Positions 1-64,000 of a stretch of DNA of 64,000 nucleotides are shown here, piece by piece (within the stretch, counting starts at the first letter, position 1; every line of letters starts with the position of its first letter). Origin of the DNA: Ancylonema sp. (taxonomy: Eukaryota); contig JBFLGF010000193.1 of NCBI GenBank assembly GCA_050230475.1, positions 1 to 64,000 on the forward strand. Reading direction: 5' to 3'. The notes beneath the pieces were generated by a model. That model saw nothing but the letters and a program-made list of their open reading frames with translations. It was not told where the DNA came from and ran no database searches. The position numbers and the translations under genes were made by a program.

Positions 1-1330
1 GCTGTTACCTGAAGTCGCTCTTGCATGAGCTCAAACTCCCTAATTAAATTACAGTTTACAGAGACTCGACTGCCGCACTCTCAATGATCCAGAACCCGGT
101 CCAGGGTCAAAAAGCCAAGCATTTCAATGTGGTGTACCACTGGGTGAAAGGGTGTCACAGAACTGGGAGACTGTAGTATGTATATCTGGCAGGGGTCAAT
201 CAACCAGCAGATATGTCCACTAAGGCTCTTCCATAGGTCTTGCTTGACAGACACGGAAAGTCTATAGGTTTTGGGAGGGTTCACTGAAGTGGGGGTGCAC
301 ATTAAGTTTAGAGGTTTCGGATGCCATGCTATGCTAGGAAGGGGGTGTATGTTCTGTTTTCTTCTTGAAAAATGCACCTGTGGAGGGCTCTCAACGCTCG
401 TCTATCCAGCTAAGTCACACCACTTTTTTTCTGCCCTGAAAATACTTAAGGACACCTGAAAAGTTGCAGATCTGCTTGCATCTAGAGTTGTCAGTTGTTC
501 ATGAATTTTAATAAATATGTTTTCATCTATGTTATGTATGTTGTGTGAAAATTTCAGTTGTTTTGGTGAAGTTTTGAGAAAGTTATGATGTTTTGAGTAT
601 TTCAAGTTATTCGGAGAAAACTGCAGAAAGTTTGTCATTGTATTGCCCTAACTTGTGGTGTTTGTTTGTATGTTCAGGGCTTCGGCCCGAAAAACGACTA
701 AGGATCTGGAGATATCGACGTCTGGAGTTCCGATCGGCGTCCGAGCGGCTGTGATTTTAGATAGGCCCCCCTAGCACGCTTGTATGCTAGGGAAGACCTT
801 ACTACCCCATGGGCTATGCAATGGTTCCGCCATGACTTAGCTGAACTTGGCATGGCATCCGAGGGGGTGTGTAGGACTTATATCGGATAGCCATGCTTGC
901 TAGTATGCTAGTCCGGGCTACCGGTTAGTACAATCGGTAGGATTCCTAGGGTGTGCTTGGATTGAGGGGCCGGACTTGTGTCCGGGCACCCGAACATGAC
1001 GTTTCGATTATGCCGTTTAGGGCACGTGTGTTTTACGTGTGGTCTAGATGGTTCCGGATCTAGACGTTAGGTCTTGTCAGACTGTCCGGCATGGGCCGTT
1101 GACATGATCTGACTGTTGTTGTGTTATGATAGGCCGCCGGTCTGCAGCACCGACCGTCGGTACACTTTGTTGATTCTCGATTCGTACGAGGCATCGTGGT
1201 ATACCTACACGATGCCGACCATTCAATAATAATACTTCCAACACAATACTTGTCATTGATCATCTTTGAGAGACGTAGTCCCTTGAAAGAACCACACGAT
1301 CTCGCACACCTATCACGTATCAACGCATAC
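1..1330 (+). mobile_element. 3' end of a Ty1/Copia LTR retrotransposon (family B): RNase H remnant, 3' region, PPT and 3' LTR
   Basis: Bases 1-290 match the RNase H end of the copy at 46103-46390 in reverse orientation. PPT GAGGGGGTG at 861-869 is followed by an LTR starting TGTAGG at 870, which is similar to the LTRs at 44982-45438 and 49730-50185. Confidence 0.9.
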
Positions 1331-3169
1331 GCCATTCGACCACCTGAGCCACTTTAGGTTTCTTCTCCAAAACCTCCCCCAGCTCCAGCTCCAGCCCGCA
1401 CTCCGGCTCTTCCAAGCTCTGCACCTGTGACTGCACCTAGCTGTGGGGTGGCAGCTCCAGCTTGCATAGGCCCTGCCACGGGACCAGATTATGGCAGGGC
1501 GCCAGCTAGGGCCTTGAAGATGCCACGCAACTTTGAGACGCGGCCATTCGGAGACTTGGAGCCTGGCACTACCAACGAGAACGAGCCGCCAGCCCAGAAG
1601 CTGCCTTCAGATCCACTCTTGGAGGTTGTGCAGCGGACCATGGAAGCTGCCAAGGAGGCTGAGCAGCACTTGGAGCAAGCCAGGGAAGCGGTCAAGAGGG
1701 TGCTGCTGGACGCGTCTGCAGCCGTTGCCAATGACGCAGCCAACGTGTTCCAGCTTCAGGGGGGGACTTTCAGGTGGGATCTGGTGAGGCCAGATCCAGC
1801 TTTTGTACAAGACCTGCTAACGCCACATACCCAGTCTCGGGAGGCCAGCAAGGGACACACTTCTTCTGCACCCCCTCCATCACTTCCTGTGTCCTGCGCC
1901 AAAGACTTCTCGACCTTCACGCCGGAGCTGCAGTCCCTACTCCTGGATCCGACCTTCGCTTCCATCATCCCTTCCAACCTTCGGGACATCATCTGCTACA
2001 AACACATGACGCTGCCGAATGCAACAAATGTGCTCACCCTTGACGGCACGGGAGCAGAAAACGTAATTGTGGACACGGGGGCCAACTACGTGATGATAGG
2101 GAAGAAGCAGGCGGAGAGGATGGGTATCAAAGACGCAGACCTGGTTGCAGACATTCCTTACCTCACTGCAGATGGCAGCACGGCCAGATGCAGAGGCGTG
2201 ACCAAGAAGACGGTGGCCATTCGACTTCTCCCTGGGACAGTGGACGAAGCCGTGGCACACCTGCACATCTTGGTGGACAACGCCGAGACTTACGACGTGC
2301 TCCTGGGGTCCCACTTCGTCAACCGGGTGGTCCACTCCATCAACCTGCGCCAAAACTACGTGGAGATCTGCCTAGACTGGGACGTCAAGGGGGAGAGGAC
2401 GGCAAGAGTGCCGATTGACACTTACATCCCCCCTTCCAGATTCCCAGTCCTTGAGGATGCCACCAACTTCCAGGGCCTCTTGGGTGGACCTCAGGACCCA
2501 GAGTCTGTGCGCGGACACGTGGCAGCACTGGAGGGGTTGGAGGCCCAGTGGCATGCTCAGGAGGCCTTCCGGGAGAGCAGACGCTAGATGCTGCGCACAG
2601 AGCAGGCCCACCTCTCTCTGGGCTGTTGGATGCGCTCTCTTCCTTCCTTCTCCCTCATGTCTGTCCCAGACCTCAGCGACATGGCTGACACGGTGCTCTT
2701 GCACGTGGAGCAGCTGCGCTCATATCTGGGCAGCAACCGCACATGTGGGCTCATTGGACCTCAGCCTGAGCTCTTCACTCGTCGACAAGACTTAGTGCTG
2801 GCGGTCATCCCGCCTCTGTCGGACCTGAGAGCTGAGCTGGACCGCAAGAAAGCTGTTGAGGAGAGGGCGAGGCGCAAGAAAGGCATCATCCTAGAGCCGG
2901 GACCCCCTCTCCCACATGGCAGCTGGTCTTTGGAGAGCCAGACCCTTGCCAAGCTTTTTGGGTTTTTTTTTTTGGTTTTTTTGGCGGCCATCACCAACTC
3001 CTTCCGGGAGGCTCGGCAACGGCGCTCTTGGATCAGCAAGCTAAAGTCTTCAGCCAAGAAGCAGCCGAAGAAACCGAAGTCTGCACCCGTGGTGTGGACT
3101 GATCCAGAACTCAATCCGGCCAGTCTTATCTGCCAAGACATCCAGCAGCTGACAGTGCAGCAACTGAAG

Positions 3170-4500
3170 GAGGGCGTCCACGTGGTGGATTTCATGGGCG
3201 GCTCGGGCTGCCCCAACCTGATGCTGTGAGTCGACAACGGCATCCCCATCAAAACTTACACCTTTGTGGACATCTCTCCAGATATCCACGTCGTGGCTCG
3301 TGCTGTGGTGGCCAAGCAGCACGCCCTACATCACACACACACTCGCACATCTAGCAAGCAAACTACCATGCACCAATTTGGTTTTACTCCCCCCCCCAAG
3401 CTCTCGGCTGAGAACCGAAGCTAGAGGTTGGCAACTTGAAGGCTACACTACAAGTGCCCCCCCCCAAGTTCCACTCACCCCCCCAAGACATCATACTAGA
3501 CCTACTGATAAGAACAGAGCAAGGCCCCAAGTGAAATGTATGCTAAGAGTGGAGAGATCAAACAAGTAGACACTTGAATTTTGCACACTAAGAAAACTAT
3601 GCACCACAACAAGTCGGCACACTAAAGAGCTTCGGCGGAACCGCAAGTCTTGTAACCACTTTCTATAGCATCTCCCTCATCCACACCTACTCCCTGCTTC
3701 TGCTCTCTAGGGGTTCGACAAGAAGCTGGCGCAGGACATCCGCAAGATAAGCGCCATGGACTTGGTCAACCTTACAGCCAAGCGTGGCCCCATAGATATG
3801 GTAGCCGCTGGTTTCCCCTGCAAGCCAATCAGTAGAGCAAGACCAGGTTGGGGCCAGAAAGACACCCGTTTTCCAGTCTTCCTTGACCTCTGCCGCATCA
3901 CCAACTGGTGCCAGACGCAGCAGGGAGGACGGCCGGTCATCTACCTCCTTGAGAACGTCTGCATCGACGCACACGTAGACAAGGCGGTGCTGGACGCGGA
4001 CAAGCTCATCCGAGCCCTCAATTTGCATCGACGCTCCCCAACTCGGATCCCTTTCCCACAGGTGGAGACGCTTCTGGACGAACATGCTGGCTCCAGATGA
4101 GCAGAGCAGCCTGCTGCCAGACGACCGCCCTCTTCCCATGCTGGAGGTCTACTTCGATGATGAGCACTCTCGAGCCCCTGTTTTCACCTGTGATCAACCT
4201 CCTTTTCGACTCTGCAACGTCAAGGGCCAGGACAGGAAGGTCCTCCCCACCATTGCCAGCTACCCCCTCAGCCACGCCGTCCAGCGCAGAAAGGATGGGC
4301 GTCCAGGGCCGGGGCAGCTCTTCAACAACACGACACAAAAGTGGGAGTCTCCCAACTTGCGGGAGAAGGAGATTCTGCTAGGCTACGATGTTGGCCACAC
4401 GGATGGAGGGCCATCTCTTTCAGCTGCCGACAGTCACCACATGCTGGGCCAGACTATCGACCGCCACGTCATCCAGTGGTTCGGTGCGAGTCTGGCATTC
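3170..4500 (+). pseudogene. DNMT3-like cytosine-5 DNA methyltransferase domain within retroelement pol (disrupted)
   Basis: Motifs in canonical order: I VVDFMGGSG, II YTFVDISP, III QDIRKI, IV IDMVAAGFPC, VI YLLENV, VIII IDAPQLGSLSHRWRRFWTN (after a frameshift at ~4015), IX REKEILLGYDVGHT and X HMLGQTIDRHVIQW. Interrupted by TGA 3227, the insertion at 3330-3685 and TAG 3708. Confidence 0.88.
3330..3685. mobile_element. 356-bp insertion (solo-LTR-like) inside the methyltransferase
   Basis: Flanked by the direct repeat CCTAC (3325-3329, 3686-3690). Composition differs from the host element, and removing it restores the reading frame KQHAL/LPASAL. Confidence 0.75.
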
Positions 4501-6482
4501 CACTCCATTCCGTAGGGATCAGACCCCACTCTCAGCCAAACACTCGAGGTGTGTGGTCTGAGGGGGGAGGGGAATACGGAGTGGTTTCTGGAGAGCATGG
4601 AGACCTTAGCGCTCTCACTCCCCGTTGAGTTCCATGCGCTGCACTTCGACGCTGCCTCCGAAGAGTTCTTATATGACCCGGAGCAGTTGCAGCACTACGA
4701 CACCGGTCCTGAAGAGCGCGTGCACCTCCACAACGCGGCTCTCACGGTGGAAGACTGGATCCGGCTCCTCGAACACGAGCCGACTAAGAGGGGGCAGCCG
4801 CTGCGGGACATGCTGCATGATCAGCAGCCCTTCATGGCAGCTGCAGACACCGAGGGTGCTTGGAAGCTGGGGGGGGGGCTCACTAAGGCGGAGAAGTTGA
4901 AGCTGGTGGACTTTCTCGAAGGCCACAAAGCTGACTTCGCCTACTCGACGGCTGATCTGGGGGGCTTCACTGGTGCGCCCATGGAGATCCCCCTGACTAC
5001 ATACCGCCCTATCTTCTCTCACGCCCACATAATGGGCAAGACGGAATGGGACTTCGTGGGAGAGAACTGCAGCAAGCTGGAGGAGCAAGGCCCCTCATCA
5101 CGCCATCCCACCAGTCCAAGTACGCCAGTGCCACGGTGGTGGAGCGTAAGCGCGACGAGGATGGAGCCTACACAGATCTGCGGCATTGCGATGACTACAA
5201 GCCCATCAACGGCTACACCGACCTGGACCGCTACCCCCTTCCTGCGATTGAGGACATCTTCCAGGAGCTGCAGGGGGCGGTGATCTTCCAAACTCGACCT
5301 TAAGTCTGGCTACCACCAGGTGCCAGTGGCTGAGCACGAAAAGTGCAAGACTGCGTTCTGGGGGATGCGACGTCAACTTTGGGAGTGGAACGTGGTTCCC
5401 TTCGGCCTTAAGAACGCTCCCCCCTTCTTCCAGCGCCTCATGGACCAGGTGCTGCGGGGCTGCCCTATGCCAGGTGCTACATCGACGACATCATCATCTG
5501 GTCGTCTTCCTTCGCTGAGCATCTGGAGCACCTCGAGATCGTCTTCACACGCCTCCGGGAGTGGGGCTTGAAGATCCATTCTGGCAAGTGCCTCTTCGGC
5601 GCTCAGGAGGTGGACTTCTTGGGGCATCGGGCACCTGTATTCTCATCAATCCGAAAACAACTCAATTAATCAAAGGTTAACTTTTTTTTTGAAAAAAGAG
5701 CGACTGTCGTCGACGAAACTTGGATATACCCGGGATGGAGTCGTGCCAAGGCGCACAAATATAGCTCCGCGGCAGTTTTTATGTTGTTTTAAGTTTCGGA
5801 GGTACTTTTTCTTTCGAATCGACATAATAGATGACGTGCAATATTCAATCGGCAAGGAGTCATCGATGACGTCAGCATTCCATGACGAGTAAATTCACAC
5901 AAGAGCTTGACACATTAGGATTGGTGTTGATGTAGTTAAAAGAAAAATGTGGAACTTGTGTGTGTGTTGGAGTGGTTGAAAGCTCAACTCTTAAAATTAT
6001 TATAAACTCTTAGTTTAAAAAGCTTCGCGTCCACATCTTGGTCATAAAAAAAGCATCGAGGATATTACACCGATGAGGATTATAGTGAAAATTTGATAAA
6101 TGGAGTAATGCAAGGTCAAATAACGATAGGAGGAGCGTCTGTAGCACCTCTCAATGACTAAAGTGTTTGTAATTTTGACCCTACAGAACTTGAATGTTTT
6201 TGCTTCATAACTATGTTTTCCATCAATGAACAAATCTATGTCGTCATTGTCATCCGAGATAGAGCTACATCGTGTTTTTCATTTATGGTGACATTTCGGA
6301 TCGAATTCGATCTTCAACTGCCGATAGGAATTGTTGTGTCAACTACTAATGAACCATTTGAATGTTGTATTGGGTTGGCATCTTTGCGGTTGATCGGTAA
6401 GTCATAGTATAACGTCACGGTCGTATATAACCGGCCCAGATACAAACACTACGAATGACCGTGAAAATATGATATAATTACG

Positions 6483-6600
6483 GGCCAAAACCTCAAATTA
6501 AGTTCTGCAATTTTGGGCTTCGGGCTGCAGCCATAAATGTGGGCTGAAGGTTGGCCCATACGCTGCTGTTTTTGGGCTGCGGCATCCCAGAGCCCAGTTC
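6483..6600 (+). promoter_or_regulatory. Cluster of site II-like motifs (TGGGCY/RGCCCA) upstream of UBC
   Basis: TGGGCT or GGCCCA/AGCCCA occurs near 6515, 6540, 6553, 6573 and 6590, about 300-400 bp upstream of the ATG. Such clusters are typical of plant housekeeping promoters. Confidence 0.4.
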
Positions 6601-6900
6601 GTTTGAATAGGCTCCTCGGAGCGGAGCGGAAACCCGAGCCGAGCCGGGTTGCCGGCTGTTCCACAACTAATCAAAATTCTCTGGAACCTACTGAGAACCC
6701 TGCACTCATTTACTACTCCCCTAAGTAGCTTCTAGAGCACGTTTGGAATCATCTCTATACGAAGTTTCTGTATCGTATTCTCTTGATCTTGTTCCCCCTT
6801 GTCTACGGTGGTACAATCCCTTTGGTTGTTGAGAGAGACTTTGAAAGAGGTTGCAGTGGTTGTTTGCTGGTGACGGGAGGCTTGGCCTGGGGGGCGAGTC

Positions 6901-8041
6901 ATGTCGACACCTGCGCGAAAACGGCTGATGCGGGACTTCAAACGCCTTCAGAATGATGCGCCCTCCGGTGTTAGTGGCACGCCGCAGGATAACAATATCA
7001 TGCTTTGGAACGCCATTATCTTTGGGTACGGCTCACTAACGCAATTCGCACTGAATGTCATGTTGCGTGGCTCAACTACATGGCACTCAGTCAACTTCAA
7101 AAATTTAAAGCCAATTCTCCGTGTCTCTTTCTTCATGGGGCAACCGTTTGTTGGTTGTCACAGGCCGGACGATACTCCGTGGGATGGAGGTATGTTTATC
7201 TCAACTTATCTCCGGGAAGATTCGCGAGCCATGCGGTATCATGCTAGCGCTCTCGATATACTTTGTATTTAGCGGCAGGATACCTGCATCGCTTTGTATG
7301 CCGCTTTCGCTGATATTTACGGGCCTCGACGCAGGACCATTCTAGCTCTCGTTGCAGTTCACGGAGGATTACCCAAACAAGCCACCCACAGTGCGGTTTG
7401 TCTCGAAAATGTTCCACCCTAACAGTGAGTGCATCTATCCCGGTCATCGCGTCACTCGCTGCAACGGTTGGTGAATCTGGAGTCCGGTTTTCACTCCATC
7501 CCTGTTCAATTTATAGTCTACGCAGATGGAAGTATCTGCCTAGACATTCTGCAGAACCAGTGGAGCCCAATTTATGACGTGGCTGCCATTCTCACCTCAA
7601 TCCAGGTGAGTCAGCTGCCCCTACTCTTCAGGTCATGAGTTCTGGGGGTGGCGTCTGGGAATTATGAACTTGTTTTGCGTCAAGGTTTTGGTCGGGGTTT
7701 AAGCATCTGGTGTTGCCGAGTTCACACCATCGTCGGTCGTCCGTTTTGGATATGTTTTCAAACAAGATTGGGTTTATGAACTGGTTCGTTTTGAAATTGA
7801 TCTTCTCAGGAGCTCAAAATCTGTACAGATTTAGGTTTTAGAGTGCCGATAATACTTGGGGGGCGGATATTCGAGAGTGTAACGTCCTTCTGTTTTCCTC
7901 TTATTTTGGCAGTCCCTTCTTTCTGACCCCAATCCTAATTCTCCTGCGAACTCGGAGGCAGCTCGTATGTACAGCGAGAGTCGGAGAGACTACAACAAGA
8001 GAGTGATGGAGATAGTGAATCAGAGTTATATAGCCGATTGA
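6901..8041 (+). CDS. UBC2: RAD6-type ubiquitin-conjugating enzyme E2 (UBC1/UBC2 family), 5 exons, with an in-frame TAG at 7343-7345
   Basis: Exons 6901-7025, 7164-7189, 7335-7424, 7517-7605 and 7913-8041 (GT-AG introns) total 152 codons plus stop. Sequence [17 protein letters not shown]...[36 protein letters not shown]...NSPANSEAA. Confidence 0.93.
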
Positions 8042-9471: not shown

Positions 9472-14367
<4,896 letters not shown>

Positions 14368-19376: not shown

Positions 19377-19894
19377 TACTGTGTACTGCCATACATAATG
19401 ACCCGGATTTTTTAAAACGAATTAATTTAGCTAAGAAACCACCACTTGACCCAACCCGCGCACCCGATAGAAATTTCCCAAAAATCCTGCAAAACATTTA
19501 TTATCTGGAAGCCCACATAATAGAATGACCCACTTTTTTAAAATAATGAATTGTTTCATTTGACCCGACCTACCCTTTTCATAATTATTTGAGGACCAAT
19601 ATGTGTGGCCAGAACAATAGTGGGGAAAATAAAATAAAAATGTATACATGATAATACGTGATAATAGAGAACTCGTGATAATAGAGTAAATGGCCGAAAA
19701 AAAGCATATGACTTACTTACTTACTTACATACGAATTACTTACATATTCTATAATGTGGGTCACGAGATAACAAATATTTTTCAGAATTTTTGTAAAATT
19801 TCTTTTGGGTGCGCGGGTTGGGTCAAATGGTGGTTTATCATTTAAATTAATTCGATTTTAAAAACCCGGGTCATTATGTATGGCCACTACGGTA
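19377..19894. mobile_element. Tc1/mariner (pogo-like) MITE family; related copies at ~20023-20231, 29031-32727 and 61422-61646
   Basis: Terminal inverted repeats of type CCGTAGTGGCCAnAnATAATGACCCG flanked by TA, with shared internal TTGACCCAACCCGCGCACCC motifs. Confidence 0.7.
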
Positions 19895-20707
19895 TTCATA
19901 ATGAATTAGGGGTTAGTGTGTGTGGTCAGTAACGTCTGGTAGTTTTGTCGAGCCTTACTGAGTCACAACAAAAACGGGTATTTCGAGTTGATGCGAGGTA
20001 AATATGTATGTATAACCTTTGAATACTGTCGTGGCCACACATAAAGAACCACCATTTGACCCAACCCCCGCACCCAATATAAAAGTTCCCAAACTCTTGA
20101 AAAGTATTTATTATGTGGTAACGCAGAGTATCGAATGACCCACTTTTTGCAACCCAAAAAAAAAAAAAAAGGTTTGACCCACCCTTCAAAAAATGTCATT
20201 ATTTAATAATCTTTTCGTGGCCATTCCGGTACATGACTTTTCCGGTTGAAAACATTGGAGGAATAAGTCCAGTTTGACCTACCAAAAATTGATATTAATT
20301 CACCCCATAAAATCACAAGTAAGCTTTCTTGTCCTACAAACATATAACACCACCAACTCGTCCAACATCACCAGTTGGTATTGACACTCGATGACCACCT
20401 CCAAATGTACACCCTCCCTTTCACGTCCCATTGGTTCCTTCGTGGGCCCTCTATGCACTACATTACGAAAACCACATTATCTCCATGATACATTTGTAGC
20501 CTGAAATGAAATACAAACAAAAGGAAGAAAACAAAAAGTATACACAAATCAGGCCCTAATTCACTCCGCATACACGAGGTCGACCTTGTTGTTGTAGCCC
20601 AATAAAAGCTCTTCATCCACGAATTGTGCCGCATCGTAATTCGCACCCCATCACATGCCGTAGCAGATGACGTACAAAAAGCGGAAAACGTAGAAGACGC
20701 AGGAAAC

Positions 20708-23700
20708 TCAAAACATGGTGGTCCACCCAGAGGCCGCAATCATTGCGCTCTTTTGCCACATCATCTTTGCAGCGCCCCCATCTTGGGCGCAAGAAAAGTG
20801 TGGCGAAAACCCTTTCACGACCTTGTCCGCTGCGGCAAACACGTTCCGACCAAACTCGACCTCCGCACACCCCACCCTCTCCAACCTCTTCCTCCAGTTC
20901 CCCAACCGCTCCGCCCGCACCGTCCTCTCCAACCCCTCACACGCGACCACGTTGAGAATGTCGCGGCCGATGTACTCGCGTTCGAAAATCTCGCGGGTTC
21001 GCACGGGGGCCTTGGATTGGTGTTGGGAGTCGAAGCTCGTGAGCCAGAATCGGAGGATTTCCTTGAAGCGCTCCATGAAGAAGAGGCCGTTTGTGTCCAC
21101 GTCGTGCTCCAAGAGGAGGAAGAGGTTCGGACGCAGCTGTCGCAGCACCTACACGAGGAGGAGACGAACAGAAGAAGAGTGTGTGAACAACACGGCGCTT
21201 GTCCGGGTCTACACACCTTCGGATAGGCACTTTCTGGAACAGTTTGGGACTCCAAACACTTTCACTACTGCTCTCCCGCGTAGTGCCTTCCAGATATAAA
21301 ACAGCTCGCGGGGTGCATCCACCCCTGATTACTCCCTTCTACCCTCCCCACCATTCCATATCTCCTTGTCCGTTCTAACGCCACAACAAGATCATGTCCC
21401 TCCTCCCCCTCCCCTACCCCTCCCATCCCCACAACTCCCACCTATCCTCCCAGCTTGCAATCACCAATCCCTCCCACAAACAAAAAAACCCTTTTTACTC
21501 TCCTGTGTACTTACTCCCTCCCCCCCCCCCCCCCCCCCCGCCAGACCCCCTCACCTGCAGAAACGAGTCCCTCGGATTGGCCCTCACCACCGTCGCATCA
21601 AACAGCGTGTTGAGTGTCATGGCGGCGCACACCACCAACACCTCCCCCGCCGTCCTCCGCACCTGACCCGGCCTCAACCTCTCCAGCCCCCCCACCTCCA
21701 CGGCCTCGTACTCAAACTCCACCCCCACCGCAGCCGCCCTCCCCTCCAGCTCCCTACGCACGTCGCTGCCCTTGGGGCGACAGGCGCCCTTGATCGGGTT
21801 CGCGAGCCAGGGGGCCTGCAAGAGGGTCAGTCTCACCGTGGGGGGCCCCCCCGGCCGCTTGCTCAGTTTCCAGAGGAGGGTGCACCCCAGGTTTGCGTGC
21901 CAGCTGTTGATGTCAACGATGTGGAGACGCGTGGCGGAGCGGGAGGCGTCCAGGATCTGCGTGAGGAGGACCTCGTGGCAGAAGGGGAGGTAGGGCATGG
22001 CGCCGCTGCACTTGCCAAAGCCTTCCAGCATTTCCTGGGGGAGGGGAGGAGGGGAGACAGGAGGGGGAGGAAAGGCATTGGGGACTGGTTTTTTTTTTTT
22101 TTTTTTTTTTTTTTCCTGGGGTCCATCATTGCAAGGAACGAAGCCTTAAAAGCAGGAAAGAGGGGCAGCACTGAAGGCCAAGATGTACCAGAGAGCAGAT
22201 GATCCGTTATAGCTATTCTAAGTACTAAAAAGGGGGGGGGGGGGGGGGAGGGCGGAAACAAAAACAAAACGAAACAGAGCTACAAACCAAGCCGTGTGAA
22301 TACGAGGAACGAGTTCCGGATTGCCTCCTACCTCTCTCGCCCCCCTGAACGGCTCGTTGTACCTCTGGCTTCCCGTCCCCTCCGCCCGCGCATGCAGGGC
22401 TTGCATGAAGTAGTGAACCGTTTTCTGCATCGGTCACCCGCAGGGATCCGCATGACGCTGAAGCATCCCGTGGAGAAAGCGGACCTTGGCCTGAATCAGA
22501 AAAATAAACATAGTATGAACATTTGAACAACTGCCGATCAATCAGCACCCCGATCTTCCACCCGTCCCTGGCCCCATTCCAGCCCCCCCATCCCTTTCAG
22601 AGCAGCCTCTATGCACCCCCTGCCAGCCTCAAACTTAACACCAACCTCCCGGCCTCCCAGCCCCCCAGCCCCCTGGCCTCGATTGCCTGTCCATTCACGG
22701 TACCCCCACCTGCCCACCCCCCTCCCAACCCTACCCTCCGCTGTTTTCACCTGATCATCGGTGGCCATGGCCTCCGCATACGCCACCAGCTGCACCCCCA
22801 ACTGCTCGGGTCGCACATCCCTCTGCATCGCGCCCACCGCGCCCCTGGCGAGCATGAGGTCCATGGAAGGACACGGGGCGGACGACGGGATCATCACACT
22901 TGACGGCCGTACAGTCCCGTCGAGGGCCACTAGACGACGGACACGTGGCGCCCTCATCTTCTTCTGGCTGGCCTCCGTTCCGGCCTTGATCTTCCCCTCC
23001 TTCCCCGCCCGCAACGCCAGCGGCCGCGATTTGTGGTTGGGGGGCAGGGGGCGCGTGGTGGAGGTCGACAGCGAGCTCTGTAACACCGTGCGCGCGGAGA
23101 AGGGCTCGGGCGGGACGAGGTTGCCGACGAGGGCGGCCAGCCGCGCGGACATGTCTAACGGCCGGGATGCCCCGTCGGCGACGGTTATCACCTTCCCGCT
23201 GGACCGGGTGTCCAACGACCCCGAATCCGACGCGCTTTTTGGCATCCCCCCCGACTCATAACTGCCCTCCGAGGATCCGGACCGCAAAAGACGCGAGGTC
23301 TGGCACTCCACGCAACCGCAATCCTCGTGCTTGTCTTCGTTCTCGTATCCCTTGGCAGGACGCAGAGAAACAGAGTTCTCCGACCTGAAACGTACGAGCG
23401 TCTTCTCGTCGCCTGGCAGGTCGGCACTCAAGGGCGAATCCGACGGTATGGAGTTCATCCACGTGTCCGGGCGACCGTAGATCGTCTGTGGTGCGTAGTC
23501 GGCCCAGGCACTCATATCCATGCCATCGGACAAAGGAGTTTCCGTGTCAAGAGGGGTCGGGGAACCGGCCAGGCTGCAGCCGGAGCCTGAACCGGAATGT
23601 GAAGTCAGTACAAGGTCGGGCACCTGCGCTCCCCCTTTATCACCTCGCGGGCCATGGCTGCTTGGAGGAGAGGTAGACGCCTGCCTGTCATGGCTCTGTT

Positions 23701-24613
23701 TTAACGACACGTGTACTTGTGGGAGGGCGATGAGAGGTTCTGGTTGGCGATACGGAAGACCGGGGTGAAGGCCTTCGAAGTCAGAAAAACTAAACACATT
23801 CTCCGCAGTTTCTCGAGCTTCGCCAGAAAAGTTTCCCAACAGGGAGTCTACGTTGGTGCCTCCAAAAAGCGCATCATCCCCCACATTCCCGCACTCTAAG
23901 TCCCCATTCCAGTTGAAATAGGAGTCGCGGGCTTCTGTGCTCGGGGGGGGAGGGTATAAAGGGATGAGGTTTGGAACGGGCCAAGATGGAGTGACCACCT
24001 CCAATCTATCTCCATAAGGTGACATACCATGCTTCGAGACATGACGACCAGAGGCAACTTCTTTGTGGAAATGACCGGGCATCATTCTCCTGCAAAATAA
24101 ATAACAAAAAAAAACAATGTTCGCTCTCCATCTCAGGACATTCTGAAAGAACATCCAAACCTGTCTTACATTCATTTACGTCAGCGCCAAGACTGCAAGG
24201 ACCATTTCATATGAAACTGAGACACCCAATGGCATACATTAGAACCACGTATGTCTTTTAGGAAAGCAGCCAAGCAGTCGCTACTGCAACGACATCATAT
24301 CTACAGTCGCTCCAACCATGCAACAACGAAGCTAAGGATCAATTTGATGCAGTACGGGACCGCACCTGTACTGCTCCGTCATATCAGGTACCAAAGCACT
24401 CCCATTCTGATCTGCTGCAAATGTATTTAACATTTCTTCTTCTGTCAGGTCGAAGTCATCGTCTGAGAGAGGCATCATGGAAGAACGAATCGACGAAGGG
24501 ACCGCCGCCGGAAGATCAGCCACGGTCATAGCCGACATCCGGACAATCGGGATGACGGAGCAGGCGGTTCCAACTGTGTCGGCTTCAATTAATCTACTTG
24601 GTGATGCCCGCAT
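20708..24613 (-). CDS. GRAS family transcription factor, at least 5 exons, with an in-frame TGA at 22434-22436
   Basis: Exons ~24366-24613, 22751-24089, 22332-22490, 21555-22034 and 20708-21148. Motifs: LHR I (LVAYAEAM...PMQKTVHYFMQALHAR), VHIID-like LHIVD, RPGGPPTVRLT, PFYRE-like FMERFKEILRFW, NVVACEGLER and SAW-like IAASGW. The 5' end is uncertain. Confidence 0.88.
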
Positions 24614-32593: not shown

Positions 32594-33039
32594 ATTATAA
32601 CAGGATTATTATTATTTCAGGATTTTGGGAAGTTTTATATTGGGTGCGTGGGTTGGGTCAAGTGCTGGTTTCGTAGCTAAATTACTTCATTTTTTTTCAC
32701 CCGAGTCATCATGTATGGCCACTACGGTACATGTTTTAAGTACTACAAGTGTTGCAACACTCGAAAGGCAAAGTGATGGCAAAATGAGACAATCGATATT
32801 GACAAAAGCAATCAAAGAAATATACAATTCAATCGGTCAGGCTAGCCTCTTAACGCCTGTACTTACACGACCAAACCCGACCCATAGAGCATGATATTGA
32901 AACAAAACAAAAAAACTGATGAAGTGGAAACCTAGCACTCCCTGGTTAGCACTTTTGAGCATGCTGTACAACTGACCTACGAATTCACAAATACACACCG
33001 AATAGACACACCAACCCCTCTCAAACTACGCCCCAGTTC

Positions 33040-36000
33040 TCAGAACTTGCAGGACGTACCAAACCGTTTTGCACTCATTCCTGCCTCTTGCTTCTGTATT
33101 TCCAGGAATGACTCCATTACTTCCTTCAAGACCTGTATATATAAGGCCCACAGCCTGTCACTCAGCTCTGAAAAGATCATGCCACCATCCGCTGGAAATG
33201 CCTTTTCAAGCTCAATAACACTGCTGCTCCCCCCTTGATGTACACTACTCCCAACCTTCGGGCCTAACGCACAATAGGACTTGGTCGGATATGAGAATGG
33301 CTGCGCAGCACGCGTATCAGCCAGAAGGGACTTTACAGCACGAACTTTTTCCACTGTACGATGAAAGACGTTGTCCACTGCCACACTCCTCTTGGTGACA
33401 GCTGGCTGCAGGGGAACAGCGACGGCACCTGACGGTCCTGCCATAAACCTGGAGCGATCTCCATCCCCAGCTGCACTGCCATCAGATTCCTCCAACCGCA
33501 GCAGGGTTGGTGCTGCTGAGGGTGCTGACGCCGGGGAGAACTGGATCCCAACGGGGGAGGAGGCTGAGGAGGTGGGAGTGGGTGAGCCACTGTGAGGGGA
33601 CCAGGGAGACATGAAGCCATTTCGGTCGAGAGAAGCTTTTGCGAATCCAGTCCGGACTTTCGAGATTTTGATGGCAAGACTGTGCTCCTTCGGTTCGTCC
33701 TCTTCAATGTCCGATCCAATCCCTGGACTCTGAGCTGATGTATCTTCCTCCTGATCCATCTCAAAGTGCAGCGGCTCCTCGGCCGGATCGGACTCCTCAT
33801 CTCCTGCTCTTGAAAGCATTTCAGACTGCCTGTGGCATTCCGCCGCAGCAGCTTCTGCCAACTTCCTCTCCAGCCTCGTTTTTGCCTCCACGCACATCAA
33901 TTCGAACTGACTCGCTTCCTCGTCCATGCCTCGCAGTTCCCTGCTCATCATACCTCCGATCTCTCCCAAGGTGAACCCTGCTGCCGCAGCTCGTTGTAGT
34001 AACGCAGTAGACATCACCAGCATGCGCAGTGCTCCAACTGGGAGGGTGGGGACGGAGGCCTTCAGCATTTCGACTTCGGCCTCCGCGTCCAGGGCATTGA
34101 TGTAGTCGAGTTCTTCCTGGGTGAAAGGAAGAGACACCTGCAGCGAAAGAAGGGCTCCCATTAGCAACGATAACGAGATACAGAGACATGAGACATGAGA
34201 CATAACAACACATACACATACAGAGACATGACAACGTCTTCAGATGCCCATAGAAGCACTGCTTGGAGCAACATCTGCCAATCGCTGACTCATCAACGGT
34301 ATAGCAAAAAAAATGAACAGAACAATTGTCATTCACAAAAGAAGGGCATACCTGCGGCCAGTGCAGCCATTCAAAGTAAGCTGACTCCACACTTTCTGGC
34401 AAGCAGAAGCCAGGGTCGATTGGTATCAGTTCCACGGCATCGTCCACCCGCAGAGACATGTCAGAAGTTGAAGAAGGTGACGTGCAGCCTTTAGTTTTGC
34501 GAACAAGTATGTTGCCTGCGGACGTCGACATGAAATGTGCCAGATGTCGTCAGAACTGGTCTAACAAGAGGCCTCTTGACAGGTAAAGAAACAGACAAAG
34601 AGGCAAGTCCAAATGCCTACAAGCTTGCTGATAGTGTGTTGTAAGTTCTTGCACAATAAACGAGCATGTCTACAAGCTAGACAAAGACCCATGACGGTCA
34701 TGTTCTGTCAATTCAAGATGCCTTTAGTGTCTCAATGTCAAGAAGCCCAACAAACTACAGCAGGGCTTTGCAAGGTCGGACAAAAAGCGTACCTGAGTGT
34801 CGATCAGTGTTAAGAATCCTGATATCGAGGATACCGATCCGATGTATTGCAGACACCGGGAACCGGGACGTGCCATGCTCACTGGCATCAAAGTCATGTT
34901 CAACATATTGTTGAAATGAAGCTATTTTTGTTGGAGGCCGGTCTCGACCTCCCAGCATGTTGCCCCCATTCACATAGAAGACACGGTGAACAGCCTTCAC
35001 CAAAGTAGTGGGCGGCACACTGGCAAATCCGCCATGGTCAAGAAGGTACGCAGCAACTTCCCGCGGGCCTGCAATTTACAGTAGAAACCCCTCTCTGTCA
35101 ATAAATACGTTTACGAATACTACCTCGCTAATTTCTGAATTGAACTAAGTTCAGAGAAATGCTAAACAAAATATCGGGGGGTGAAGCTGAAATCATATAA
35201 CAGTTTCTGTGAGAGAGGGTAGGAAAGCACGTGGCCATCGGCATGGTCACGGAGGGGGTAAAAACATCAGAGTGTAAGGATATCCAAGTGGAGGTACCTG
35301 CTTCGCCCACCCTGATAGTCCGTTTAAGGCCAGGCTGTCCCAGAGGTCTCCCTATGTATCCATTAGGGTTGTTGTGGGCGAAGGGCTCTTCGTCCGTCGG
35401 CTTGATGATGGCAATGCGCTGCCCTTTCCGATTTTTAAGGTAGTATGCGCCTCCAAGGCCACCTGTCGCTGTTTCTGGGTCCACACCGCAGTCCACAGCC
35501 GTCGATGCCTCCTTCACAAGCCGTTTGATTTGTGAATTGACGTGCATCCTGTCAAGCACCTCAAAAGCCCGAGATACATCTGCGCTCGCCGCGTCTGTGC
35601 AAGGACCCATGGAGGGACTGCTACAACACCTCGTGATGCCCCGAGAGAGAAGGACTGGAGAGGAATTTCGAAGCTCACTCAAGTCATCCACAACGTGGCC
35701 ACCCAGAAGCAACTCGGACTGTTCGGTAGGCACGGACAACACAGCCTGGACTGCTTTCATAAGCTTGTGTACCGTGTCTCCCCTATCCAAGTCCACGCCC
35801 AGAACTTCTCCGGTCTCAGTCTGGACGTATACGCGTCGCAGTCCTACCGTTCGAAAGCCAGAATTCATGTTTAATAGCGGATTGGGAACACCAACGGGAG
35901 ATTGCACCTGCATGTGCATGTGGCAATGAAAATAAGCTTGTGAACTGCCAATCGGGTCCACCCCTTCTGCTTTCAGCATTGTATCGTACTTGCGTACAAG

Positions 36001-36150
36001 AATATAACTCCTAATCTTGACAGAGCTAATACCGATCGATTGCTGACCAGAGGGCGAGTCAAACAGCTAGGATACCAGCACACTTACAGAACTATGTGAA
36101 AGCATTGAGCAACTCTTTACCTGAAGAGGACCGCTGAGACGAGGCGCCAT
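33040..36150 (-). CDS. Type II phosphatidylinositol 4-kinase gamma (ubiquitin-like domain kinase, PI4K-gamma5-7 like), 5 exons
   Basis: Exons 36121-36150, 35298-35907, ~34793-35068, ~34352-34515 and 33040-34137. UBL domain RRVYVQTETG, then GGLGGAYY, IIKPTDEEPFA, REVAAYLLDH, NTDRHSGNILV, YFEWLHWPQ and the C-terminal RFGTSCKF. Confidence 0.9.
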
Positions 36151-41193: not shown

Positions 41194-44100
41194 TGTACGG
41201 TAAAGCAACGTCGTTTTGGTATGATTGTGAAATGTGTTTAGAAAAGTGTTCTCGTCGGGCTAATGTACCCGACGAGGCGACAACGGTACAATGATTACTG
41301 GACACTTTTCTAACCGACGGTCGGAACTATCGATCGCCGTCGTGCCACCGCACCTGTGTCCACGGCAACATGCCGGACTCGACTGTCACCACACAAATCC
41401 AGCTAATGGGGTGGTGATACCGCCTGGTATTCTACAACGACTACTAGCTAGGTCACGTCCGTACAAGTGTGGACGTGCCGTGTGCGAACGGATACCCGGG
41501 TATAGCATTCCCGGCTCCGTGTCCTAAAAGACTCTAAGGCAATTAGCCGGACAAGGCAAACAAGTTATTGTTGTGCCTATCCGAACTCAATTCCTAACAC
41601 ACCCCCTCGGATGCACATCCTTGTTTGGCATTGTCTAGTGCAAAGGAGGACTACCCTACAATGAAGCCGGGTAGTTGGTCTTCCCTAGTCAAATATCGAC
41701 CTAGGGGCTCCTATCTACGTCATCCCAAATCATCCACGCTTGAACTTGAAAAGCTCCCGTTCCTTGTCGTTTTTCGGGCCGAAGCCCTGAACATACAAAC
41801 AAAAACAACAAGTTAGTCGACAAACAAAAACATAAAAAATCGTTTTTCACTTTCCAGTTTTGAGTCAGAAAATTTAAAATTGCATAACTTCTTGCAAACA
41901 TAACAAAAAAATCTCAGATTTTGACAAAGCGCTTAAAAAGGTAATACAAACATATATGCGAAAATTTAGCTTTATAAAAGTTCATATGCAAAAGTTTAAT
42001 TTTCAGACTTTAACTTTTTCACATTTTTCTGGACTTGAAACACTTTAGAGGTTGAGAGTTGGAAGGGACTCAGCTTTGAAAACAATAGTAGTCCTCCACT
42101 CTGCATCACAAAAATCACCCCCTGCTAGACTAGGGAGTGGATCCGAAAGCTCCTCACCAGCACCACCTGTTTATTTGACTTTTCCAAAACCTACAAACTT
42201 CGTATGCCTATCTAACAAGAGTTGTGGCAAGGCCTTAGTCAACATATCTGCAGGCTACACTAAGATGCACATATCTCAGTCTACCCTTCCTGTGGCACTC
42301 CCTGACCCAATGATAGACCACGTTAAAGTGTTTGGCCTTCTGGCGTTGGACAGGGTTGATGATCATGGACAAGGCTGAGTTTGAGTCAGTATGAACAGTA
42401 ATCTGAATTGGCATCTTAAGCCCATGCAGGAGCGACTTAAGGTAGCATCACTCTTTATTGACACTACATGCCGCAATATACTCTGTCCCCGCCGTACTCT
42501 GTGCCACGGTGGACTGCTTCTGACTCTTTTAGTTGAAGGCTGTCCCTCCTACTGTGGTGACCCATCCTGTGACTGACTTAACTATCATGGGGCAATTGTT
42601 ATAACTAGCATCACAAAATCCCTTAATTTCCAAGCGTTTCTTGCCTACAAACGTAAGACCGTGATCTTGAGTACCCTTTAGATAGCGGAAGAGATGGTGA
42701 AGTGCCTTAATATGATTAGGGCCACGGTTGGACATGTGTTTTGCTAGCACCCCTACATTGTACGCAATGTCTAACCTGGTCTGTTTCATAGCATAGATTA
42801 AACCTCCTATCTTCCCTCTAAAGTCTGTGATAGCTTCAAGGGTAGGGGGGAAGGAGGGTTCATCACTTAGGGAGAATTGGGTTCCAGGGGCAAGGGGAAG
42901 TTTGGTGGGGTTACAGTCCCCCATACCATACCGATCCAGCACTTGCCGCACGTACCCGCCCTGAAAAAGCGTTAGCATCCTGCACCCCCTGTCACGTCTC
43001 ACTTCCACCCTCAAGATGTGGGTTAGGGGACCTAAGTCTTTCATTTTGAAAGCTGACCCTAACTCCTTCTTGAACTCAGCAATGACCTTCTTATTAGGAC
43101 CTACAATGACCTCATCATCTACATGAATACCCAAAATAATTCTGCTCTGACTCTCACCCCTGGTATATATACAAGTGTCCATAATAGACTGTGTGAACCC
43201 CACTTTCAGCATAAACTCACTAAACATTTTAGCCCAGACGTGGCTACTCTAGTTAAGGCCATATAGGGCACCTCGCACTCTTAACACCTTTCCCTCACTA
43301 CCACCTCGGATTTTCATACCCGGGGGAATCGTCATGTAAACCTCTTCCTCTGCCTGCCATGCAAAAAGGCAGTCATTACGTCCATACCCTCAATCTCCCA
43401 TTCATTTTGGTTAGCTATAGCAATCACCAAGGAAAGGAAGTGCTATCTACGACAGGTGCAAAAACATCGTTATAGTCTATACCTTCTTGCTGCAAAAATC
43501 CATGAGCTACCAGTCTGATCCTATGCCTCTCGATCTCACCAGAAGGCAAGAGTTTGAGTTTGAAAACGTACTTACAACCAAGAGGCCGCTTTCCGGGGGG
43601 AAGCACACACACTTCGAAAGCTACTCCTTTAGCGACTGCAGCTCAGTCTGAATAGCCTCCTCCCACTGCTGCCAGTCAGGTCGTTTCTTTGCTTGGTTAA
43701 AGGTGAGTGGGTCAGAAGAATTAGCTGTCTGGCTAGCAAGAACATAACCTGGATCAACTGGCCCATTAAAACCCGTGAAAAAACAGGTAGGCTCAAAGTT
43801 GTCAATAGGCATCTGCCCACATGCAATAGCGTCAATGACATCCTCATCTAACTCTTCCCCATCCCAAACTCAGCAAAGTTTACCCGTCGCCTCGCCATCA
43901 CGCGATCCGCGATGCTGTGCTCCTCCACCCCCGCGTCACCACCCCCTCCTTCAGCACCCCCTCTTTGCACCTCCTCCTCCTCATCTCCACCCCCCATATC
44001 ATTGACCCCTGACTCCGAGAGCTCGATGACTTCTGGCTGGTGTAGCTGGACGGCTAGTACATGGGCTACAGGGACTGCTGGGACATGGCCTAGTGCTCTG

Positions 44101-44981
44101 GCTGGTGCTGGGTCGTCATCTTCTCCACACGGGACAAGCTTGAAAAAATGTTCATATGAGGGAGGGGAAAGTGGTTGCGTTGCTGCCTTCTGCCCCATCA
44201 ATCGGGGGTAGCCTCGCACGGAGTCGTAGAAGCGCACGCTTGTCCTCACGATGAGACCAGCTCGCAGGGGATCGAAAATCCTGTACCCTGCTTGCCCAGT
44301 TGCCATCCCCAAAAACACCCCAAAAGCTGTCCTAGATGCAAACTTAGCACTCTTAGGATCCTTATCGTGTCCAACCTTCAAATACTGGACCAGGCACCCG
44401 AACGTGTGGCTATTCTGATACCTAACCTTCTTCCTCGACCAAACCTCAGTCGGTTTCTCACCCCCCAATGTTGTTGTTGGTGACCTAATCCTTAGCTTGT
44501 TTGCATGCAACAATGCAACATCCCAATAAGACTTAGGCAGTCTACTCCACAGCAGCAGGCATCTCATATTCTCTAGCAAGGTTCTATTCGGCCGTTCACA
44601 ATCCCATTCTGTTCAGGACTGTACGGACCTGTCAACTCATGCTTAAACCCTTTACTCTTAGCAAACCTAGTTCACTCATGTGAGTCATACTCTCGTCCCA
44701 TGTCAGTCTCGACCTTTAGCATCTGGACCAAATCCTTGGTAACCTCCGGTGCCTAACTCTTTTCTTCAGCAGACTCACAAAAGACACTCTTGTGCTGGCC
44801 TCTATCCTTGACTGGAAATACTGGTACCCCCCATTTGCTGACATTACAGCCAAAGGCCCTACCAGATCCAAGTGAATTCTACCCATCTTCTGTGCATGAC
44901 CTAGATCCTCATCACTGTCTGACCTAGACCGGTGTGGCAGCTGAGTCATCTTGCCCTGGCTAACAGATTTGACAGTTATAG
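41194..44981 (-). mobile_element. Ty1/Copia retrotransposon family A, 3' portion (integrase, RT, RNase H, PPT, 3' LTR), degenerate
   Basis: LTR 41194-41599 (TG...CA) with adjacent PPT. Pol fragments IHLDLVGP, TFGCLV, GCKYVFKLK, GIHVDD and GFCDASY. A matching LTR lies at 53580-53986. Confidence 0.9.
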
Positions 44982-47900
44982 TTTTAGCGATGTTACGTGA
45001 TAGGTGTGCAAGATCGTGTGAATCTTTCCGTACAAGGGACTACGTCTCTCAAAGATGATCGATGACAAGTATTGTGTTGGAATAATTATTATTGAATGGT
45101 CGGCATCGTGTAGGTATACCACGATGCCTCGTTCAAAACAAGAATCTACAAAGTGTGCCGACGGTCGTATCTGCGGACCGTCGGCCTATCAAAACACAAC
45201 AACAGTCAGATCATGTCAACGGCACATGCCGGCAGTTGACAAGACATAACGTCTAGATCCGGAGGAACCATCTAGACCACACGTGCAAAAAACGGCACAA
45301 TCGAAACGTCATAATTCGGGTGCCCGGGACATAAGTCCGGCCCCTCAATATAAGCACACCCTAGGAATCCTACCGGTTAACGCTAAACCGGTAGTCCGGA
45401 CTAGCACACTAGCAAATGGCTATGATATAATTCCTACACTCCCCCTCGGATGCCATGCCAAGCATGGCATTGAGTCAGCACCAAGGGACTACCCTATCTA
45501 CAGCTAAGGTCATGGCGAAACCATTTCATAGCCCATGGGATAGTAAGGTCTTCCCTAGCATACAAAAGCGTGCTAGGGGGCCCTTATCTAAAATTACACC
45601 GATCGGAAGCCGATCGGAACTCCAGAAGTCGATAGCCCAGCTCCTAGTCGTTTTTCGGGCCGGAGCCCTGACAAACAAATACCACAAGTTAGGGCAATAC
45701 AAAAATGACCAAGAAGTCAAACTTCTGCAGTTTTCTCCGAATAACTTGAAATACTCAGAACTTCACAACTTTCTCAAAACTTCACAACTTTCTCAAAACT
45801 TCACAACTTTCTCAAAACTTAATCAAAACAACTGAATTTTTTACACAACATACATAATATAAATGAAAACACATATTCCAGAATTCATGAACAACGGACA
45901 ACTCTAGATGCAAGCAGATCCGCAACTTTTCAGGTGTCTTTAAGTGTTTTCAGGGCAGAAAAAAAGTGAGGTGACTTAGCTGGATAGACGAGCGTTGAGA
46001 GCCCTCCACAGGTGCATTCTGCAAGAAGAAAATAGAACATACACCCCCTGCCAAACATAGCATGGCAGCCGAAACCCCTATAACTTAATATGCACCCCCA
46101 TTTTAGTTAACCCTCCCAAAACCTATAGACTTTCCGTGTCTGTCAAGCAAGACCTGTGGAAGAGCATTAGTGAACATATCGGCTTGTTGATTGGCCCCTG
46201 CCAGATACACATACCTCAGTCTCCCAGTTTTGTGACACTCTCTCACCCAGTGGTACACCACATTGAAATGCTTGGTTTTCTGGCGCTGGACTGGGTTCTG
46301 GATCATTGAGAGTGCGGTTGTTGAGTCACTGTAAACTGTAATTTCATCAGGGAGTTTGAGCTCATGCAAGAGCGACTTCAGGTAACAGCACTCCTTAGAC
46401 ACACTACAGGCATCAATATACTCAGCCTTTGATGTACTCTGTGCGACTGTAGACAGTTTCTGTGACTTCAAGCTTAATGCAATCCCCCCAACAGTTGTGA
46501 CCCACCCTGTGACCGATTTCCCAGTCATACTGCAGCTGTTCCAACTAGCATCACAGTACCCTTTGATCTCTAGCCTCTTTCGCCTCACGTAGCATAGTCC
46601 GTGATCCACTGTCCCCTTTAAGTATCTGAACAGTTGGTGTAAGGCCTTTATGTGAGCAGTCCCAGGATTCCCCATGTGTTTTGCCAGTACCCCCAGTGCA
46701 TGTGCAATATCCGGTCTGGTGTGTTTCATTGCATAAATGAGTGACCCAATTTTTCCCCGGAATTCAGTTATCTGTTCAGGTGTAGGGGGAGTTAGAGGTT
46801 CATCCTTCTTGGTGAAATGTCAGTCCAGGTGGTAAGGGTAGTTTGGTAGGGTTACAATTTGGCATCCCAAAACGTTCCAAAACCTGTGTTTTGAACCCTC
46901 CCTGATGCAACGTGAGCACCCCCTGTTGTCTGTCCCTTTTCACTTCCACCCCAGGATATGGGTTAGGGCCCCAAGATCCTTCATTTTAACCCAGACAGTT
47001 GTTGCCTGTTTGAATGCTTTAATGACCATGAGGTCTGGACCAATTATCACCTGATCATCTACATGGATCCCCACGATGATGCGTGACTATCCTTTCCCCC
47101 TGGTGTATATGCATGTGTCCATAATGCACTGTTTGAACCCTATACTGAGCATGAAGGTTGTGAACATCTCACCCCAGACCTTGCTACTCTGTTTCAGTCC
47201 ATACAGTGCCCCCCTCATTCTCAAAACTTTTCCCTCAGCCCCTCCCTTAATCTCCATGAATGGTGGAATTTTCATATATACTTCTTCGGTCAGTCTTCCG
47301 TGCAAGAAAGCAGTCACCACATCCATCTGTTCAATTTCCTTGATTCGCAATAGCTAGTAGGAGAGATATAGGATAGAGGTACTATCTACTACAGGTGCGA
47401 ATATTTCATTATAATCAACTTTTTCTTGTTGTAGGAAACCCTGAGCGACCAGTCTGACTTCATATATTTCAAGGGCTCCCATGGGTGTGTATTTGATTTT
47501 GAATACATACTTACACCCCACAGCCCTTTTACCTGGCGGAAGTTCACACACCTCGAAGGTGTTGAATTCCCCCAAGCTCTTCACTTCCTCCTTGATGGCA
47601 GCTAACCACTGATCCCAGTCTGGCGTTGTCATGGCCTGGTTTAGTGTCAAAGGGTCGGAGGAGTCAGCAGACATGGCCACCATGCAGAATCCAGGGTCAG
47701 AGGGGCCGTTGAAGCCTGTGAAGAAGCACGTTGCCTCCCACTCCTCGACCTAAATAGCTGCTTCCAGCGCCTCGTCGTCGAACTCCTCCCCATCATATCA
47801 GAGGACATCCCCAAAGTGGAGTGGGCGAAGTTCGCCCCCCTCCTCCCCATTACACGCTCAGCTTCAGCATTTACCCCTGGGTTGGCACCCCTTCACCCCC

Positions 47901-53576: not shown

Positions 53577-53579
53577 AAT

Positions 53580-63885: not shown

Positions 63886-64000
63886 ACTGGATGTGGATCA
63901 GACTTCTGTGGATGGGTATAGCAAATAAGTTTTTCAACTGACAGTGAATGCAGCTAGCGTCAACAGTGTTTCCGGGCAATAAGGTTTGCTATGCACACCT

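Follow-up and report, generated by a model that had tools for sequence, protein, structure and literature searches.

A Ty3/Gypsy retrotransposon remnant with a DNMT3-like cytosine methyltransferase in its Pol frame, and relatives in two domain orders

Near the left end of a 64,000-nucleotide stretch of Ancylonema sp. DNA (GenBank assembly GCA_050230475.1, contig JBFLGF010000193.1, positions 1 to 64,000 of the forward strand; hereafter the window) lies the remnant of a dead Ty3/Gypsy retrotransposon. It consists of a protease, a spacer, a C5 cytosine methyltransferase (MTase) and a reverse transcriptase (RT), and both of its ends are lost (Table 1). We are nearly certain that it is a truncated copy of a multi-copy Ty3/Gypsy element that carries a DNMT3-like C5 MTase between protease and RT in one Pol frame. 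Gypsy elements with a DNMT3-like MTase in Pol are already known from Klebsormidium (KnitGypsy-Dnmt3). What is new relative to the literature is that the relatives of the window's element come in two domain orders, which split in both the MTase tree and the RT tree.

Pfam searches of nine single-frame pieces identified the catalytic domains. Asp_protease_2 was matched in the piece covering 1358-2584 (PF13650, E 6.9e-8; PF13975, E 1.3e-7), DNA_methylase (PF00145) at 3711-4013 (E 5.2e-8; score 33.1 bits, curated cut-off 22), and RVT_1 (PF00078) twice, at 5284-5463 (E 6.9e-12) and 5460-5636 (E 6.4e-13). An initial annotation of the window, made from its letters alone, had suggested a profile search for PF00145, RVT_1 and a retropepsin-type protease, and all three were matched. 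Four of the nine pieces gave no Pfam match, and the spacer gave only an insignificant one (E 0.17).

Three-frame translation recovered every protease, MTase and RT motif where that annotation had placed it. The protease DTGA lies at 2080-2091. The MTase series comprises motif I (DFMGGSG, 3187-3207), GFPC (3810-3821), ENV (3951-3959), IDAP..HRWRRFWTN (4027-4083), EKEILLGY (4363-4386) and LGQTID (4444-4461), and the RT motif YIDD follows at 5478-5489. A single frame with a single stop (2585-2587) leads from the protease to motif I, and a single frame with a single stop (4513-4515) leads from motif X into the RT lead-in. These junctions, together with relatives that cross them in one open reading frame (ORF), confirm the earlier proposal of a fusion within Pol.

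The remnant is cut on both sides. A Copia element, whose 3' end occupies bases 1-1326 and in self-BLAST shares 84% identity with 44987-46389, adjoins the Gypsy-DNMT element and probably truncated its 5' side. Among contigs aligned to the region, depth steps at ~1348 and ~5697, and the remnant therefore spans about 1327 to 5632. The end at 5632 was already annotated correctly, whereas the start had been put at 2050 and the open frame begins upstream of that, at 1358. On the 3' side the copy stops just past the last RT motif, and RNase H, integrase and terminal repeats are absent from it. One contig covers 5585-6200 with zero differences and at flank (single-copy) depth, so the 3' cut is present in the DNA of that sample; an assembly artefact at the cut is rejected on the same evidence. 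Window positions 1200-7000 contain no long repeats, and no second copy of the element was found elsewhere within the 64 kb.

The window copy is also internally decayed. The MTase carries two further stops (3227-3229 and 3708-3710) and a short deletion with a frameshift near 4015-4020, and RT frameshifts lie near 5090, 5286 and 5465, with indels near all three RT sites in some other copies. These lesions recover the four frameshifts annotated earlier at ~4015, ~5090, ~5288 and ~5465. The insertion previously delimited as 3330-3685 is real, with corrected limits of 3332-3680 (349 nt; 4 nt fit either side), and contigs from three contig sets (X1, X2 and X4) skip exactly these 349 nt. Runs of G/C in the insert look like a minus-strand polypurine tract, and contigs extend past the insert on both sides.

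Many other copies are represented in these contigs. In X1, 2248 contigs aligned to 1000-6200, and their summed depth was ~300-1200 over the element versus 13 in the flank, a sign of many copies only and not a copy number. X1 and X2 derive from a single sample, maybe the window's own source, and do not count as independent support. Every part from protease through spacer, MTase and linker to RT is tiled by divergent contigs. Inside stop 3227-3229 (at 3229) and stop 3708-3710, the window departs from most other copies; stops 2585-2587 and 4513-4515 are not among the copy differences listed. Outside the insert lie 31 of the 40 listed majority differences, distributed 9:11:11 over the codon positions, as expected of neutral decay in a dead copy. 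In X1, 39/70 majority differences are transitions in which the window carries the A or T, as would fit deamination after host methylation. The contexts of 13 transitions (CG 2, CHG 5, CHH 6, versus a background of 118, 145 and 390) are too few to read.

Table 1. Features of the Ty3/Gypsy remnant, in window coordinates.
Feature	Position	Strand	Evidence
Ty3/Gypsy remnant with DNMT3-like MTase in Pol	1327..5632	+	contig depth steps, self-BLAST
Pro-rich open frame 5' of protease, likely gag end	1358..2020	+	no Pfam family; partly aligned to P0004
Retroviral-type aspartyl protease, DTG motif intact	2027..2410	+	PF13650, PF13975; 70% identity with P0004
Spacer of ~254 codons, one stop (2585-2587)	2411..3169	+	48% identity with P0004/P0005
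MTase motifs I-II, stop 3227-3229	3170..3331	+	78% identity with P0004
Later 349-nt insertion splitting MTase, from another repeat family	3332..3680	.	joints skipping 349 nt, X1/X2/X4; P0004/P0005 continuous there
MTase motifs IV, VI, VIII, target-recognition region, IX, X	3681..4512	+	PF00145; DNMT3A E 1.9e-7
MTase-to-RT linker, opens with stop 4513-4515	4513..4860	+	P0180-P0182 cross junction in one ORF
Reverse transcriptase with YIDD, cut after final RT motif	4861..5632	+	PF00078; 58% identity with P0182 over 248 columns

Relatives with intact frames establish the architecture from which the window copy decayed. P0004 and P0005 are uninterrupted protease-spacer-MTase ORFs that share 52-57% identity with the 5' half of the remnant. 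When P0004 was used for a full scan, it returned 839 representatives at E<=0.001, and we placed domains in the best 150 of these matches using profiles made for this analysis. The MTase was present in 145 of the 150, of which 92 were assignable to a position in a retroelement polyprotein and 53 were too short for this. Given these numbers, the initial description of such elements as rare did not stand.

The placed relatives have two domain orders. Order A, in which the MTase follows the protease or precedes RT as in the window, accounts for 17 of the best 150, and order B, in which it follows RNase H or RT or precedes the integrase, for 75. Both orders were confirmed by Pfam in 29 proteins and in 9 more. 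Within one ORF, P0181, P0024 and P0163 each encode, from first to last, protease, PF00145, RVT_1, RNase H and rve integrase (the P0163 protease was detected by our own profile). All three thus have the Gypsy layout of protease, RT, RNase H and, last, a DDE integrase; with the Pfam domains, this integrase-last arrangement upholds the original assignment to the Gypsy type. The MTase shares its ORF with RT and RNase H in these three proteins, and in the window it shares the frame of RT apart from the lesions, RNase H having been lost. In P0181 a PHD finger follows the series protease, MTase, RT, RNase H, integrase, and such a finger ends many other relatives as well (15/29 scanned).

Some relatives depart from these layouts. 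P0043 carries an added Tudor-like domain. P0012 and P0030 are long proteins with protease and MTase in which RT was not found after the MTase despite 167 and 477 further residues, possibly reflecting a split Pol or another architecture.

Source organisms were looked up for 20 relatives. Four of order A are from Closterium, one of order B is from Scenedesmus, a chlorophyte, and 15 bear no organism; none of the 20 is from Klebsormidium. Relatives' DNA loci were found neither in viral contigs, queried with an MTase piece, nor in metagenome contigs, queried with P0004 or alignment A5. A word search with a C-terminal MTase piece gave 0 matches among 445 candidates, and yields were 1/1360 for a longer query and 3/7996 for a profile; the word index therefore misses most of the family. 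The initial annotation had also asked about relatives that lack the MTase. None was found in the window's RT subfamily, a weak test given that the searches were mostly MTase-led.

As first suspected from its motifs, the MTase has DNMT3A/B as its closest match in both sequence and predicted fold. Searched against solved structures with an X at the frameshift, the window MTase matched DNMT3A best (E 1.9e-7), with M.HhaI reaching only E 0.1. A profile of 26 relatives ranked PDB entries in the order DNMT3A (75 bits), DNMT3B/C (58-67), DRM (DRM2; 45-50) and M.HhaI (43). DNMT3A/B/C outrank both DRM2 and bacterial enzymes by sequence. A bacterial Dcm as nearest match is rejected. The AlphaFold model of P0005, whose MTase is 61% identical to the window's over 259 residues, has a mean predicted local distance difference test (pLDDT) score of 78.6, mostly >90 within the MTase. 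It matched DNMT3A with E 3e-14 and a TM score of 0.79 over the target, and all fold matches listed were DNMT3 structures. Motifs I, IV, VI, VIII, IX and X follow in order in the window, in a Dnmt3-like, intronless arrangement without the DRM-type permutation. A host DRM or DNMT3 gene lying beside a transposon is rejected.

Between protease and MTase lies a spacer that is specific to the window's subfamily. The spacer proper, from protease end to MTase start, measures ~254 residues in an intact relative; the ~350 codons given earlier for this spacer, which does exist, count the protease body too. It has a Lys/Arg-rich stretch, and the AlphaFold model of an intact relative predicts long helices with pLDDT of about 55-80. 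Spacers of other order-A relatives range from 42 to 309 residues. Neither Pfam nor Atlas provided a usable family match to the spacer.

The phylogenies of MTase and RT tell a common story. The MTase tree (101 rows, quick search, without host DNMT3 sequences) places orders A and B on two sides of one branch (98), and groups the window with P0004 and P0005 (100) and then with P0180-P0182 (99). The RT tree (51 rows, unrooted) has the same A/B split (96/83) and groups the window with P0180-P0182 (100/99). Across 49 proteins, distances between the MTases correlate with those between the RTs (Mantel rho 0.76, p 0.001), and many well-supported splits are common to both trees (12/16 MTase splits in the RT tree, 11/19 in the reverse comparison). 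Kin share labels, and the correlation therefore shows co-descent, not function. Against a thin outgroup of 3-4 elements (4/64 loci with integrase, none with MTase), the RTs of both orders form one clade (99/97 in a 32-row subset; 96 in another tree). The element's RT groups with integrase-bearing loci, apart from integrase-less viral loci. Support for the branch linking the window's subfamily to order B is 80/49, and monophyly of order A is not rejected (approximately unbiased test, p 0.515).

How the two orders arose can be read in more than one way. Their separation in both trees suggests one old lineage that moved its MTase, and our preferred reading, which we consider somewhat probable, is one DNMT3 capture followed by one move of the MTase within Pol. 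If related Gypsy lineages had each captured a host DNMT3 independently, each order would likewise lie on one side of a branch in both trees, and the MTase tree had no host DNMT3 to root it. SymbioDIRS-Dnmt3 elements likewise occur in two orders that their authors, in the accessible part of their paper (PMC5890265), read as independent captures. This account is nevertheless unlikely, as the RTs of both orders fall into a single clade when set against the thin outgroup, family-specific variants such as GWEC (motif IV) and LG..MD (motif X) are common to both, and the PHD-finger ending occurs in both. That the fusion is instead a single accident, with a host DNMT gene or retrocopy inserted into a dead element, or the two brought together by the assembly, has a negligible chance of being right: the window copy is indeed broken and missing both ends, but P0004, P0005 and P0181 are intact one-ORF relatives, divergent contigs tile the element and the trees are congruent. 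Because intact one-ORF relatives exist, other copies lack the insertion and at least two of the stops, and the MTase and RT trees agree, the MTase fusion is a family trait and not a one-off capture.

A bolder version of the single-capture reading can be offered tentatively, at somewhat less than even confidence. Gypsy-DNMT3 elements may be one old and large lineage of green plants, spanning zygnematophyte algae and chlorophytes such as Scenedesmus, that captured DNMT3 a single time, kept catalysis, often gained a PHD finger and moved the MTase once between protease-MTase-RT and RT-RNase H-MTase-integrase. Most relatives lack the canonical dipeptide of motif IV: P is found in 8/22 and 18/73 relatives, and EC in 14/22 and 46/73. 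The window's subfamily retains canonical PC (window 3810-3824), and its intact relatives would therefore be better activity candidates than the single Gypsy enzyme tested so far.

We next consider what the MTase might do. Judging from sequence and predicted fold, it is very probably catalytically active in live copies. The catalytic Cys and the motif VI Glu are kept in 95/95 relatives and the motif VIII Arg pair in 95/95 and 94/95 (counted in placed relatives whose domain has at least 280 residues, after removal of near-duplicates and unplaced rows), although these counts come from proteins found via their MTase and are biased towards conservation. All of these residues are kept in the window copy. 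Pol-encoded domains are packaged together with RT, and because the MTase lies inside Pol it would be packaged as well. The element's own cDNA would be the most available double-stranded DNA for a packaged MTase, and packaging and availability together favor cDNA methylation, probably at CG and before integration. A new copy marked in this way could look like methylated host DNA. Taken as a whole, we think it likely that the window holds a dead Gypsy copy and that the MTase of active copies methylates the element's own new cDNA in the particle before integration; that cDNA is the enzyme's main substrate is, as a separate claim, only slightly favored. Methylation in cis on cDNA is a proposal that the authors of PMC5890265 themselves make in the available portions of its discussion and review file, and the same source describes SymbioDIRS-Dnmt3 domains that methylated CG in yeast.

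Several observations weigh against cDNA self-methylation, besides the sampling bias in the residue counts. The EC or other dipeptide that replaces PC in motif IV of most relatives may alter activity. The isolated KnitGypsy-Dnmt3 domain gave no DNA methylation in yeast, a result that its authors, in the available text of PMC5890265, call inconclusive since DNMT3B failed too. CpG observed/expected is 0.61 in the element versus 0.43-0.55 in three MTase-less Copia/Gypsy stretches of the window, with host genes at 0.63-0.96; compared with its window neighbors the element thus lacks a CpG-depletion footprint of self-methylation, which host methylation of all of them would mask. The role of an epigenetic writer, put forward in the initial annotation, thus finds no support in this copy, which is dead and has no extra CpG loss, nor in the yeast result. 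Finally, no single contig covers the whole element, and terminal repeats are not visible in a copy that has lost both ends.

Other uses of the enzyme are conceivable. It could be kept for self-restraint, pre-silencing new copies and lowering host load, or for nucleic-acid binding or RNA methylation, and not as a disguise for cDNA. These possibilities are named in the seen part of the PMC5890265 discussion, and the lack of yeast activity of the Klebsormidium enzyme reported there, like the altered motif IV of most relatives, would suit them. We judge them improbable: the near invariance of the residues for catalysis and base flipping, together with a DNA enzyme's fold, speaks against a merely structural or RNA role, and self-restraint does not conflict with cDNA methylation, from which it departs only in what is gained. 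Still less probable is that the MTase acts mainly on host DNA, writing host marks with the integration complex at the insertion site or across the genome in trans. The PHD finger, a chromatin-reader fold, at the end of many relatives and the position of the MTase next to the integrase in order B point that way, but in the window's order the MTase sits beside RT, far from the integrase, and the K. nitens methylome is plant-like although such elements are present (PMC5890265, in the portion available).

The rest of the window contains host genes and other repeats. A GRAS-domain gene (20600-24175, minus) is split over several frames, which we read as several introns. A CP29/Lhcb4-like light-harvesting gene (63220-63897, minus) scores higher against land-plant than against Chlamydomonas-type CP29 structures, the organisms of these entries being in part presumed. 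The genes point to a zygnematophyte alga as the host, with a bryophyte less likely. An intron-containing gene at 6901-8040 encodes what we take to be a ubiquitin-conjugating enzyme of the RAD6/UBC2 type, and a gene at 33040-36066 (minus) with a ubiquitin-like domain (weak Pfam match) is presumably a PI4K-gamma kinase. Nested Copia elements and long terminal repeat (LTR) copies of one or two families occupy 1-1326, 42160-50656 and 52725-53986, and at 51091-52726 (minus) another Gypsy-type element is represented by its gag-like and protease frames (RVP_2), with no MTase seen. An (AT)n microsatellite of ~430 nt spans 11646-12078. Two small repeat families, one with inverted copies, are possibly non-autonomous elements (9813-10468 and 59738-60392; 19388-20186, 32610-32729 and 61420-61648).

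The searchable literature continues to associate Gypsy-DNMT3 elements with streptophytes and with the 2018 description of KnitGypsy-Dnmt3, and the available parts of later texts keep the link to streptophytes (PMC12344493, PMC6338049, 10.64898/2026.05.21.726589). No paper came up that deals with elements of Closterium or Scenedesmus, with chlorophyte members or with the two orders, in a search that left most subscription journals, figures and some supplements outside its reach. With no signal from the single Gypsy enzyme tested, such elements raise the question of why a retrotransposon would retain a silencing enzyme. Our analysis adds a further host lineage and intact natural relatives in two orders (P0005, P0181, P0024, and the Closterium and Scenedesmus accessions). 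Some of these relatives are in culturable algae, providing material for testing activity, context and substrate.

The closest known system is KnitGypsy-Dnmt3 of Klebsormidium nitens, a Gypsy element with a Dnmt3-like domain in Pol (de Mendoza et al. 2018, PMC5890265; comparisons here draw on part of its text). Both have an intronless, non-permuted Dnmt3-like domain in a Gypsy Pol ORF with RT and RNase H, a streptophyte host and conserved catalytic residues, which supports the initial view that the window element is of the same kind in a GRAS-containing streptophyte. They differ in that the window's host is GRAS-bearing and likely a zygnematophyte and that its subfamily has the 254-residue spacer. 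KnitGypsy-Dnmt3 has DIRS-like split direct repeats at its ends; the window copy has lost both of its own ends. Purifying selection on the MTase (Ka/Ks <0.2) would be a further trait expected of this kind of element.

More distant parallels exist in other retroelements and in animals. SymbioDIRS-Dnmt3 of Symbiodinium, as described in the accessible text of PMC5890265, also combines a Dnmt3-like domain with RT in Pol and also has two coexisting domain orders, but uses a DIRS tyrosine recombinase where full-length relatives here have protease and rve integrase. A DIRS element is rejected for the window copy, given the rve integrase of these relatives and the lack of any recombinase match in the polyprotein. 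EpiLTRs of Cymbomonas and Euglena, also Gypsy-like LTR elements, combine a cytosine MTase with a chromatin-reader domain. According to the part of their report available (10.64898/2026.05.21.726589), their DNMT is sister to DNMT4 and accompanied by a Dam adenine MTase and a chromodomain, whereas the MTase here is DNMT3-like and none of the 29 plus 9 relatives scanned gave a Dam or chromo Pfam match. The mammalian DNMT3A/DNMT3B catalytic domain is the best sequence and fold match, sharing motifs I to X and the motif VIII pattern IDA..S..HR.R.FW.N. Identity over the fold is only ~21%, and unlike the mammalian enzymes the element's MTase has a longer target-recognition region, lacks PWWP and ADD and forms part of a polyprotein.

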